Source: Candidatus Profftella armatura
GTDB lineage: Bacteria > Pseudomonadota > Gammaproteobacteria > Burkholderiales > Burkholderiaceae
Length of the DNA stretch: 32,000 nucleotides
Direction of reading: 5' to 3'
Assembly (NCBI RefSeq): GCF_000441555.1
Contig: NC_021885.1
Coordinates: 240,001 to 272,000, forward strand
Every line of letters begins with the position of its first letter. Within the stretch, counting starts at the first letter, position 1. The notes below the pieces were generated by a model that worked only from the letters and a program-made list of their open reading frames with translations, had not been told where the DNA came from and made no database searches. This document shows positions 7,201 to 10,200 of this stretch, one piece after another. The translations under genes and the position numbers were made by a program.

Positions 7201-10200
7201 GAATTTATAACAAAAATTTTATCTAAAAATAATTTTGTTAAAAATTTAGAAAATTTATTGTCTAATATTGCTTATACTTTACAAGTTGGGCGAGATTCTA
7301 TGGAATTCAGAATTGCATTTATAGTTAATGATTTAAATCATTTGATTAAATTCTTAAAAAAAATAATAAAAAATAATTTTGATATAAATAATAAATTTTT
7401 TGAAGATAATATATGGATTAATGATTTGGAATCAGTTAATAAAATAACTATAAAAGATAATATTGTTAAAGAATGGTTATTTTGTAGTAATTTAAAAAAA
7501 TTAGCTAATGCTTGGGTAAAAGGAGTTTTTATTGACTGGAAAAAACTTTACATAAAAAATAAAAATTATAATCGTATTCATTTACCTACTTATCCATTTG
7601 AAAAAGAACATTATTGGAAACCAAGTAATATAAAAATTAAAAAAAATATACTACCAATTTTTAAAAAAAATACCTTACATCCATTAGTTCATGAAAATGT
7701 TTCTACATTAAATAAACAATGTTTTATTTCTACATTTCATGGTAATGAATTTTTCTTATCCGATCATATAATAAATAATTATAAAATGTTACCAGGTGTA
7801 ACTTATTTGGAAATAGCGTATTTTTCAGTAAATTATTCAATAAATAATTTTTCTAAAGATAAAAAAATATTTAAGTTTAAAAATATTATTTGGATTAGAC
7901 CTGCTTTTATTAGTAATAAATTATTAAATATTTCTATAAATTTAACAAAAAAATCAGATAATTTAATTAATTATTCAATTTATAGTAATGATATGTCTTT
8001 AAATAAAGATAAATTATTACATAATCAAGGATTAGCGTATATAGTATCATCAAAATCAGAATCTATATATTTAAATTTATCAAATTTAAAAAATATTTTT
8101 AAAAATTTTGAAGTAGAAGTTGATAAATGTTATATGATTTTAGAGAAAATGAATATTTTTTACGGTCCTTCTCATAAAAGTTTAAAGATAATTTACTGTA
8201 TAGAAAATCAAGTATTAGCTTATTTATGTTTACCGGATATAATTAAAGATACATGTGACTCTTATACAATCCACCCATCATTAATGGATGGAGCATTTCA
8301 AGCCAGTGTTGCTTTAAAATTAAACAATAATAATTTTGATGATAAAAAATCATTATTACCCTTTTCTTTAGAAGAATTAGAAATTTTTGGTAAGTGTGAA
8401 AAAGAAATGTGGGTTTGGATACGTCATAGTGATCATAAATCTTTTAAAGAAAATAATAACAATATACAGCGTCTTAATATTGATTTATGCACAAATAATG
8501 GAGAAATTAGGATTCGAATAATAGGATTTACCTCACGAGTTTTAATAGATAATAATATAAATACTATTTCTTCAAAAAAAAATGATTCTATTTCTCACCC
8601 TTTATTTATAAAACATGATTTTGATCAAACTAAATGGACGTCAAATTTTAATGGAAATGAATTTTTTTTAAAAGACCATAAAAATATAATGCCAGCTGTA
8701 ATTTATTTAGAAATGGCTTATATTGCTGCCGCAAAAAATACTAAAATAACAGGTTTAAGTAATATTATTTGGCCAAAAATTTTATTTATTAAAAAAAATA
8801 ATACATTAATAACTCAATTAATTTTTAAAAATATTAATAGAATTGAAAAATATATTATTTTTGATTCTCAAAGTAAAGATGTTTATTGTCAAGGTAACTT
8901 TATTATAGATAATTCTGATAGTGATCACATATCAAAAAATCAACAAGTAACAGATTTTTGTATATCAGATATTAAATTATTAAAATCTCGTTGTAATTCT
9001 GTATTAAATTATCAGCAGTGTAATTATATACTTCAATATACTCATGGCCCATCTTTAATGAGTATTTATAAATTATATTCTAATAATAAAGAAGCATTAG
9101 CTTTATTAAATTTTCCAGAAAAATTTTTAGATAAAAATAATAATTATGTATTTCATCCAAGTTTATTAAATGGAGCAATTTTAAGTAGTGTAATTTGGTC
9201 AATTATCAATCGTGATAAATCTAAATTAATACAAAATTTACCAATGCCATTTAGTTTAAAAATATTTAAAATTCATAATATATTATCTTTTTCAAAGAAA
9301 CTATATGTATATATAAAAAAATCAAAAAATTTTACATTATCTGAGAATTTAGAATTTTTTAATATTCAAATATTTAATACAAAAGGTACATTATTAATAT
9401 CCTTATTAGATTTAACTTTAATCTTTAAAAAACCTAAATATAATTTATTATATGCTACCCCAAAATGGAAAAGTGAAAAATTAAGTTCTAAAACAAAAAA
9501 TATTAATAATATCTCTAAACCAAGATTTCTTCTTATAGAAAAAAATATTCAATTGCAAAATGCATTATATAATGCTTGGCCTAATTCTATTATCGATATT
9601 ATTTTTGAGAAAAATACAAATGATATTGAAAAAAATATATTTTTTGAAAAATTTTTAAAATATATATTTAAGTACTGCAAAAATATTTTAAAAGAAAATA
9701 ATAATATTATTCAATCTTTAATATTATTAATACCATTAGAAAAAAAAGCTTTTTTATATGGAGGCAGTATATCTGGTTTTTTAAAGACAGCTTGTTTTGA
9801 ATATACAAAATTATCAGCAAAAATTATTTATTATCCAATTATAAAAACAGATAATTCCGATAAAAAATTATCAAATTTAATATTTAATATTTCTACTGAA
9901 ATTTCATCTATATCTACTGACGTAGAAATTTGTTTTCCTAAAGAAGGAAAACGTAAGGTACGAAAATTATGTGAAATTGATATTAAAAATAATAAAGAAA
10001 ATATACTTTTAAATATTAAAGAAAATGATGTAATTTGGGTTATTGGTGGAATGGGAGGAATTGGGCGTTTATTAGCTAATTATTTGGGAATTATTAAAAA
10101 ATCTCACTTAATATTAAGTGGTCGATCTGAATTAAATGATAAAAATTTAAAATTTATAGAAAAATTAAAAAATAAAAATATAAATATATCTTATTTAAAA

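Follow-up and report, generated by a model that had tools for sequence, protein, structure and literature searches.

A known DH-PS didomain in DipT of Candidatus Profftella armatura, with a probable pyran synthase as its second hot-dog domain

Known pyran synthases and the dipT locus

The described pyran synthase (PS) domains closest to the present case are PedPS7 of the pederin protein PedF, the in vitro work on which is reportedly that of Pöplau et al. 2013, and SorPS from module 9 of the sorangicin system, the structure of which (6b2v) is said to come from Wagner et al. 2018; for diaphorin, the PKS annotation of Nakabachi et al. 2020 reportedly follows Nakabachi et al. 2013. The hallmarks of PS domains are a retained catalytic His, replacement of the catalytic Asp by His or Asn, and a position beside a DH domain (PMC4979870; PMC7327777), and these domains form a clade of their own (PMC4979870). 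PedPS7 cyclised a hydroxy-enoyl substrate surrogate in vitro (PMC4979870), and oxa-Michael cyclisation in vitro is described only for the PedPS7 orthologue and SorPS (PMC4979870; PMC9600693). Closest of all is DipT, which builds the toxin diaphorin in Profftella, a symbiont of the psyllid Diaphorina citri (PMC7643613). The PS of DipT in Profftella_DC and Profftella_Dco is the same domain of the same gene as that considered here, and Text S1 of the 2020 comparative genomics study of Profftella gives "KS7 DH PS KR ACP ACP" for DipT_Dco (PMC7643613).

Translation of the window, the stretch of 32,000 nucleotides analysed here (contig NC_021885.1, positions 240,001 to 272,000; GC ~23%), reveals a single plus-strand frame that is open from its first nucleotide to the stop of dipT and crosses the left window end, so that dipT extends upstream of the window. 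The product is 99.9% identical to the Candidatus Profftella armatura protein XKS59607.1. The SerRS ORF flanking dipT recurs identically in the Profftella genomes CP146399.1 and CP041281.1, in which the gene upstream of SerRS encodes 8731 or 9402 aa, and dipT is intact at these lengths in most Profftella assemblies. Within the window, the Pfam-based domain order of dipT is KS-KR-MT-ACP×3-KS-DH-PS-KR-ACP×2-KS-KR-ACP-KS-(decayed DH) (Table 1), which equals the published order KS6 KR MT ACPn KS7 DH PS KR ACP ACP KS8 KR ACP KS9 (DH) (PMC7643613 Text S1). The three ACPs after the MT match those reported at the post-MT site of DipT from Profftella_DC (PMC7643613); the window strain may differ from other Profftella assemblies in ACP copy number and poly(A) run lengths, and in nothing of substance.

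We put at about 0.93 the probability that the region encodes the DH-PS didomain of a KS-DH-PS-KR-ACP-ACP module in DipT, the PedF orthologue of the pederin-family diaphorin PKS. This DH-PS pair is already annotated in the literature, and finding it again is a re-discovery. Its value as a discovery is small, given that the pair stands in the published diaphorin model and that PS enzymology is established on PedPS7 and SorPS. A sequence-only reading had recognised the pyran synthase from residue patterns, and because that call holds up it serves as a positive control.

Table 1. Coordinates in the window of dipT, its modules, and the domains, motifs and key residues of the didomain
Feature	Position (nt)	Strand	Evidence or remark
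dipT, 3' part	1..17754	+	PedF orthologue, diaphorin trans-AT PKS/NRPS; translation, Pfam domain order, published architecture
Preceding module, reductive and methylating part	2527..5790	+	Pfam, TRF
Preceding module KR	2527-3069	+	Pfam
Preceding module C-methyltransferase	3901-4212	+	Pfam
Preceding module ACP triplet	4464-5790	+	TRF, 432 bp × 3.1 copies
KS of pyran-forming module (KS7, published numbering)	5857..6933	+	Pfam ketoacyl-synt and Ketoacyl-synt_C, aa 1919-2277 of the translation begun at nt 103
Canonical DH	7678..8595	+	His/Asp/Gln class
DH profile match, first domain	7663-8574	+	303 bits, E 8.6e-95
DH His motif LSDHIINNYKMLPG	7756-7797	+
DH catalytic His codon	7765-7767
DH YGP	8161-8169
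DH second motif HPSLMDGAFQ	8272-8301	+
DH catalytic Asp codon	8287-8289
DH Gln	8299-8301
PS domain	8596..9430	+	Motif class, profiles, nearest neighbours, AF2/Foldseek
DH profile match, second domain	8575-9426	+	162 bits, E 8.8e-52
PS shortened His motif LKDHKNIMPAV	8668-8700	+
PS His codon	8677-8679
PS HGP replacing YGP	9043-9051
PS second motif HPSLLNGAIL	9154-9183	+
PS Asn for Asp	9169-9171
PS Leu for Gln	9181-9183
KR of pyran-forming module	10033..10578	+	Pfam KR, aa 845-1026 of the translation begun at nt 7501
Tandem ACP doublet of pyran-forming module	10847..11431	+	TRF (285 bp × 2.1 copies, 100% identical), Pfam PP-binding

PedPS7 is likened to the window PS by module position and architecture rather than by sequence alignment: the protein and the module position are orthologous, the DH-PS arrangement is the same, and so is the predicted ring, whereas the Profftella PS is of strongly AT-biased composition. 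Colinear KS-DH-PS-KR-ACP-KS blocks, 35-39% identical to the window over ~2000-2600 aa, occur in BryC of the bryostatin system (Candidatus Endobugula sertula) and in a trans-AT PKS of Planktothrix paucivesiculata. Their PS domains belong to the PS class and share the four-residue deletion described below, but the BryC domain carries His at the Asp position where the window has Asn, and in the Planktothrix domain Leu takes the place of the short-motif Pro.

Sequence class and fold of the two hot-dog domains

The two adjacent hot-dog domains carry their four motifs in one plus-strand frame, an arrangement far beyond chance. A profile of 309 canonical trans-AT DH domains finds both, as expected from the sequence-only reading of two back-to-back domains, and Pfam reports PKS_DH_N twice and PS-DH twice in the region. 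The first domain, earlier named a true DH, proves to be one: it retains the His, the YGP and DxxxQ, its sole departure being an Asn at the Gly of HxxxGxxxxP that is common to 22 of 326 canonical DHs, and its score on the PS profile lies 119 bits below that on the DH profile.

Examination of the catalytic columns in an alignment of 404 DH-like domains, drawn from a set of 150 representative proteins, shows that the second domain keeps the His and has Asn at the Asp and Leu at the Gln position, just as had been read from the letters. The spacing from this His to the Pro is four residues against the canonical eight, with the Pro kept (DH-x4-P), and the domain envelope adjoins that of the upstream DH. 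Loss of the Asp directly after a true DH is, as claimed, the published PS pattern (PMC4979870; PMC7327777). The class defined by His, Asn or His in place of Asp, and no Gln has 15 members among the 404 domains, and 13 of them, SorPS included, share the four-residue deletion in the His motif; a spacing of four is seen in only two canonical His/Asp domains, which mostly have eight (305) or five (21), and all four stand-alone Asn-Gln domains keep eight. Furthermore, an upstream DH-like domain was detected for 11 PS-class domains, 10 of which lie 1-11 residues after it, and the second domain of the window has both the short motif and the position directly after a DH. The change of Gln to Leu is not by itself specific to PS domains (PMC9600693); the deletion and the retained Pro are the more discriminating features. 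The short His motif is an empirical class feature of the present analysis rather than a published criterion; among the 404 trans-AT DH-like domains, its combination with the post-DH position is a better guide than Asp-to-Asn by itself for telling PS-class domains from the stand-alone domains that also carry Asn, and the deletion could provide a simple diagnostic for PS against enoyl-isomerase DH* domains.

Profiles with both motif regions masked recover the same class. In a leave-one-out comparison, the second domain scores 51.5 bits higher on the PS than on the DH profile, within the span of the PS references (+39 to +92) and opposite in sign to the stand-alone Asn-Gln domains (-46 to -73) and the canonical DHs (-51 to -125). 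With seven masked subclass profiles, the PS profile is best at 179.5 bits, as against 79.5-130.2 for the six other DH subclasses; the domain does not group with enoyl isomerases or dead DHs, an outcome that the earlier reading had said would overturn its call. Nine of the 10 best per-domain phmmer matches are likewise PS-class, including BryC and the colinear Planktothrix PKS. On the PS-class profile, the best canonical DH scores 217 bits, the enoyl isomerase 4u3v 30.6 and AmbDH3 (AmbC 5o15) 31.5, while the 303 bits of SorPS (6b2v) show its class membership and are not independent support for the window domain, since the profile includes a Sorangium SorPS homologue.

Single-sequence comparisons are less discriminating. 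A phmmer search against the PDB finds canonical trans-AT DHs as the closest chains (62 and 56 bits), with SorPS at 44 bits and ~21-22% identity. In a crude identity-based NJ tree of the 404 domains the window PS falls among canonical DHs and not with the other PS domains; its pairwise identities stay at 30-37% whichever class it is compared with, and the placement probably reflects an extreme AT-driven amino-acid bias. We set this placement aside given the flat identities and the clean separation of the classes by the leave-one-out profiles. A protein homologue search with the PS domain alone found nothing; one with the PS alignment yielded nothing but short proteins, among them the SorB PDB sequence, and did not recover PedF; and a genome-contig search for related loci found none in a species set that may lack tiny symbiont genomes.

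The AF2 model of the second domain (pLDDT 84, pTM 0.86) adopts the double hot-dog fold, and its Foldseek matches are PKS DH and PS structures at TM ~0.8, with 6b2v on top (TM 0.82/0.85) by a small margin over canonical DHs. SorPS shares with it the retained His, the Asn at the Asp position and the DH-x4-P motif (DHEQLFPA), but reads DPNLGNSVLV where the window PS has HPSLLNGAIL. The masked profiles, the nearest domains, the match to 6b2v and the published label (PMC7643613) agree with the PS named in the sequence-only reading, and together these alignments, profiles and the model support membership of the second domain in the PS class, rather than among enoyl isomerases or dead DHs.

Alternative assignments of the second domain

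The second domain might instead be the inactive relic of a decaying DH, with the ring closing spontaneously or through another enzyme. The highly reduced, AT-rich genome of Profftella, the clearly decayed DH at the end of the same protein, the capacity of oxa-Michael additions to proceed without an enzyme, and 1-bp poly(A) changes by which two public assemblies lose the frame at the PS or within it would all fit such decay. However, the domain matches the PS alignment at every one of its 12 invariant and 15 near-invariant positions, its substitutions are class-specific rather than random, and it reaches 162-221 bits on domain profiles, as against 5-25 bits for the true C-terminal relic, whose His motif is gone. 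Between the two Profftella lineages, moreover, the PS is no less conserved than the active DH (89% identity to its Profftella_Dco counterpart, with identical motifs, against 86% for the adjoining DH), and the gene is intact in most assemblies. Decay is hence an improbable account of this domain.

A double-bond-shifting DH* or enoyl isomerase, which would move the double bond from α,β to β,γ and form no ring, is suggested by the same catalytic substitutions: enoyl isomerases likewise have Asn for the catalytic Asp (PMC7327777), shifting DHs likewise are without the Gln/His of DxxxQ/H (PMC9600693), and Asn and Leu alone are therefore compatible with both assignments. Yet shifting DHs are described as being without the Pro of HxxxGxxxxP (PMC9600693), which the window domain keeps, and the sampled Asn-Gln domains are stand-alone, lie 564-1218 residues beyond the DH before them and have a spacing of eight. 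On the PS profile they fall 46-73 bits short of their DH-profile score, whereas for the window domain the difference is positive, and on the profile built from them that domain drops to 79.5 bits. The PksR enoyl isomerase 4u3v was not matched by the second domain at E<=1 in the phmmer search of the PDB. The pederin core has a ring at the corresponding position, and not a β,γ-olefin. Diaphorin is itself a pederin-type compound, and the core is almost identical throughout that family (PMC6855096). Isomerisation appears very improbable here. Least credible of all is an AmbDH3-type bifunctional dehydratase-cyclase: AmbDH3 is a tetrahydropyran-forming hot-dog domain too (PMC4979870), but it retains both His and Asp and acts alone in a cis-AT PKS with no need of a preceding DH (PMC4979870; PMC7327777), whereas the window domain has Asn for Asp, follows a separate canonical DH, and belongs to a class whose profile barely registers AmbC.

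Predicted ring closure and poly(A) runs

The present data show which gene this is, its domain order, the residue pattern, the PS class, the fold and the conservation; the chemistry, the part played by the His and the choice of nucleophile are taken from published work on PedPS7 (in vitro assay) and SorPS (structure and assays). PS activity of the window domain is inferred from orthology, and with the pederin model and the PS literature as guides we propose the following chemistry. The preceding module would make the β-hydroxy, gem-dimethyl unit that later becomes part of the ring. KS7 would then extend the chain, the KR of the pyran-forming module would reduce the β-keto group to a β-hydroxyl, and the first hot-dog domain, through its His and Asp, would remove this hydroxyl to give an ACP-bound 2-enoyl thioester. 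With Asn in place of its Asp, the second domain should be capable of neither dehydration nor rehydration; its retained His may serve as the general base for a hydroxyl that sits four carbons farther down the chain, at C7 from the thioester (C11 in pederin numbering), and oxa-Michael addition of that oxygen to the β-carbon would close the right-hand tetrahydropyran ring. The KR predicted to install the nucleophilic hydroxyl lies upstream of the window, probably in the module KS5-KR-ACP of the published DipT order (PMC7643613); the window covers only the KR-MT module immediately preceding the pyran-forming module.

In two other public Profftella assemblies (CP146393.1 and CP174202.1) dipT is broken by poly(A) runs that are 1 bp shorter. 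One frameshift affects the linker between DH and PS (A9 to A8, window ~8575-8583) and another lies within the PS (A8 to A7, window ~8792-8799). It is possible, though unlikely, that these are real alleles rather than homopolymer errors. If so, some symbiont populations would need transcriptional or translational slippage to make full-length DipT with its PS, or else would have lost or altered toxin production.

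Identity and architecture of the gene

Translation of the window (G+C about 23%) yields a single very long reading frame on the + strand, which runs from nucleotide 1 to a stop at 17754; since it is open from its first nucleotide, the gene extends upstream of the window. The gene is dipT, whose product is described as the orthologue of PedF and as assembling most of diaphorin (PMC7643613). The adjacent seryl-tRNA synthetase (serS) ORF is identical across many Profftella genomes (e.g. CP146399.1 and CP041281.1), in which the gene upstream of serS codes for 8731 or 9402 aa, and the window protein is 99.9% identical over 791 aa to XKS59607.1, a Candidatus Profftella armatura representative. 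The identical serS and this protein match place the window in Profftella, the symbiont of Diaphorina citri. The other genes are housekeeping ones, namely serS, a TsaD-family gene (PF00814), typA/bipA, truB, infB, nusA and genes for a ferritin-like protein and an ATP synthase alpha/beta-family subunit. An ORF of 215 aa in the window (202 or 215 aa, depending on the Profftella assembly) separates serS from the TsaD-family gene; a Pfam search gave no match for it at E<=0.001.

Pfam, a DH profile built from 309 canonical trans-AT DH domains and TRF together give the domain order KS-KR-MT-ACP×3-KS-DH-PS-KR-ACP×2-KS-KR-ACP-KS-(decayed DH). The DipT of the sister lineage is given in Text S1 of PMC7643613 as 'KS6 KR MT ACP… KS7 DH PS KR ACP ACP KS8 KR ACP KS9 (DH)', where PS stands for pyran synthase; the domain structures of both lineages' DipT are conserved except for the ACP number, and DipT_DC, like the window, has three ACPs after the MT (PMC7643613). 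Given this agreement in order, the PS label of the second DH-like domain is itself already published, and the DH-PS pair of DipT is known rather than new. The amplification of ACPs in DipT is likewise published (PMC7643613). In CP174202.1, protein P0002 carries the second-array ACP in three copies, against two in the window; such differences, together with DipT lengths of 8731 versus 9402 aa between assemblies, suggest copy-number variation or assembly collapse. The '(DH)' at the end of DipT, marked as non-functional in the published architecture (PMC7643613), has as its counterpart in the window a decayed remnant to which the DH profile matches only in fragments (5.5 and 25.2 bits) and from which the His motif is gone.

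An intact dipT is present in most Profftella assemblies; in CP146393.1 and CP174202.1 it is called as two ORFs because of a poly(A) run that is 1 bp shorter. These differences are more likely to be homopolymer sequencing errors than biology, for example slippage-prone sites.

Features of the dipT region, in window coordinates
Feature	Position	Strand	Details
ACP tandem array	4464-5790		432 bp × 3.1 copies, 100% identity (TRF)
First hot-dog domain	7663-8574		DH profile, 303 bits, E 8.6e-95
LSDHIINNYKMLPG	7756-7797	+	first-domain (DH) motif
HPSLMDGAFQ	8272-8301	+	first-domain (DH) motif
Second hot-dog domain	8575-9426		DH profile, 162 bits, E 8.8e-52; abuts first
Poly(A), A9 to A8	~8575-8583		DH-PS linker; one of CP146393.1/CP174202.1
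LKDHKNIMPAV	8668-8700	+	second-domain (PS) shortened His motif
Poly(A), A8 to A7	~8792-8799		inside PS domain; the other of CP146393.1/CP174202.1
HGP	9043-9051		in PS, at the YGP position of canonical DHs
HPSLLNGAIL	9154-9183	+	second-domain (PS) motif
ACP tandem array	10847-11431		285 bp × 2.1 copies, 100% identity (TRF)
Decayed DH-like remnant	~17113-17715		after last KS of DipT; DH profile fragments
serS ORF	17800-19134		just downstream of dipT
215-aa ORF	19131-19778	-	between serS and TsaD-family gene

Residue pattern and conservation of the DH-PS pair

The four motifs picked out by the sequence-only reading all lie in one + strand frame where it had placed them. Pfam recovers PKS_DH_N and PS-DH twice each in this region, and the two back-to-back hot-dog domains are confirmed to be no chance pattern. 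The first domain carries the His, YGP and DxxxQ motifs, with a Gly-to-Asn change in HxxxGxxxxP that is common to 22 of 326 canonical DHs, and on these residues looks competent.

An exhaustive HMMER search with the second domain against 1.84 billion representative proteins gave 1544 matches at E<=0.001, and 404 DH-like domains were extracted from the best 150 of these proteins and aligned. His/Asp/Gln occupy the catalytic columns in 296 of the 404. Fifteen domains, including that of the window, form a PS class which retains the His, replaces the Asp with Asn or His and lacks the Gln/His. In nearly all of these (13 of 15), a deletion has removed four residues from the stretch that links the catalytic His to the HxxxGxxxxP proline, leaving DH-x4-P; among canonical domains the His-Pro spacing is 8 in 305, 5 in 21 and 4 in only 2, and it is 8 in all four stand-alone His/Asn/Gln domains. 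Where an upstream DH-like domain was detected, 10 of 11 PS-class domains start 1-11 residues downstream of its end; in nine of those ten cases the upstream domain aligns as a canonical His/Asp/Gln DH. The window PS has both the deletion and the position directly after a canonical DH. BryC, from the bryostatin symbiont, belongs to the class as well, as do Sorangium proteins and a Planktothrix PKS whose colinearity with the window protein extends over about 3900 aa. The HGP of the window PS may be a third signature of the class, absent from the sequence-only account: 8 of 14 PS-class domains in the PS alignment have a His there. Two stand-alone domains, in the representative proteins P0024 (aa 3082-3364) and P0138 (aa 3019-3291), keep His/Asp/Gln yet have the PS-type deletion, and could be DH-PS intermediates or bifunctional domains.

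That the second domain is a dead relic is very unlikely, as it matches the 14-sequence PS alignment at all 12 invariant and 15 near-invariant positions. Against DipT_Dco, machine-read from Text S1 (PMC7643613), the PS is 89% and the adjacent DH 86% identical, with catalytic residues kept in both motif pairs and the PS motifs identical; within DipT itself, the C-terminal '(DH)' has decayed, unlike the PS.

Profile and structural tests of class membership

Because the PS class had been defined by active-site residues, both motif regions were removed before a leave-one-out comparison of PS and DH profiles. The window second domain scores +51.5 bits (PS minus DH), alongside +39 to +92 for 13 PS references, -46 to -73 for Asn-Gln stand-alone domains, -51 to -125 for canonical DHs and -98 for the window first domain. 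Thus the second domain falls on the PS side and not, as the sequence-only reading had allowed for, with enoyl isomerases, double-bond-shifting DH* domains or inactive DHs. An enoyl isomerase or DH* would also carry Asn and lack Gln; these domains are, however, described as lacking the Pro that the window PS keeps (PMC9600693), stand alone rather than adjoin a DH, and lie on the DH side in every profile test, which makes this assignment extremely improbable. With seven subclass profiles the PS profile is best (179.5 bits; runner-up 130.2, Asn-Gln 79.5), and 9 of the 10 best per-domain phmmer matches are PS-class, though only 14 such are present among about 400 domains. In a crude identity-based NJ tree the window PS was not grouped with the PS class, and its identities to all classes are flat (30-37%); the window protein is AT-biased in composition, and canonical DHs come out ahead of SorPS, the sorangicin module 9 PS, in single-sequence phmmer.

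The PS-class profile, which itself includes a Sorangium homologue of SorPS, scores 303 bits against SorPS (6b2v), versus 217 for the best canonical DH, 30.6 for the PksR enoyl isomerase (4u3v) and 31.5 for AmbDH3 (5o15). An AmbDH3-type bifunctional domain can practically be dismissed, as such domains retain the Asp and require no separate DH (PMC4979870, PMC7327777). SorPS shares the short His motif and Asn of the window PS. When an AlphaFold2 model of the latter (pLDDT 84, pTM 0.86) is compared with the PDB by Foldseek, it matches best to 6b2v, titled 'Pyran synthase domain from module nine of the sorangicin pathway' (TM 0.82/0.85), with trans-AT DHs narrowly behind. The proposal of a true DH followed by a pyran synthase is hence borne out by the residue pattern, the masked profiles, Foldseek and the published DipT annotation.

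Predicted chemistry

The analyses above establish the identity of the gene, its module order, the residue pattern, the class membership, the fold and the conservation. By analogy with the pederin and sorangicin systems (PMC4979870, PMC7327777, PMC9600693), we infer a pyran synthase chemistry for the second domain, whose orthologue PedPS7 has been biochemically characterised (PMC4979870). The module KR would produce a β-hydroxyl, from which the DH would yield a 2-enoyl thioester. The PS, lacking the Asp needed for (de)hydration, would then activate through its His the C7 hydroxyl (numbered from the thioester), such that the C7 oxygen attacks the β-carbon in an oxa-Michael addition and closes a tetrahydropyran. 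Taking the published module order together with the structure of pederin, the nucleophilic hydroxyl would come from KS5-KR-ACP, a module that lies upstream of the window, and the preceding KR-MT module, which the window contains, would provide the hydroxylated and gem-dimethyl ring carbons.
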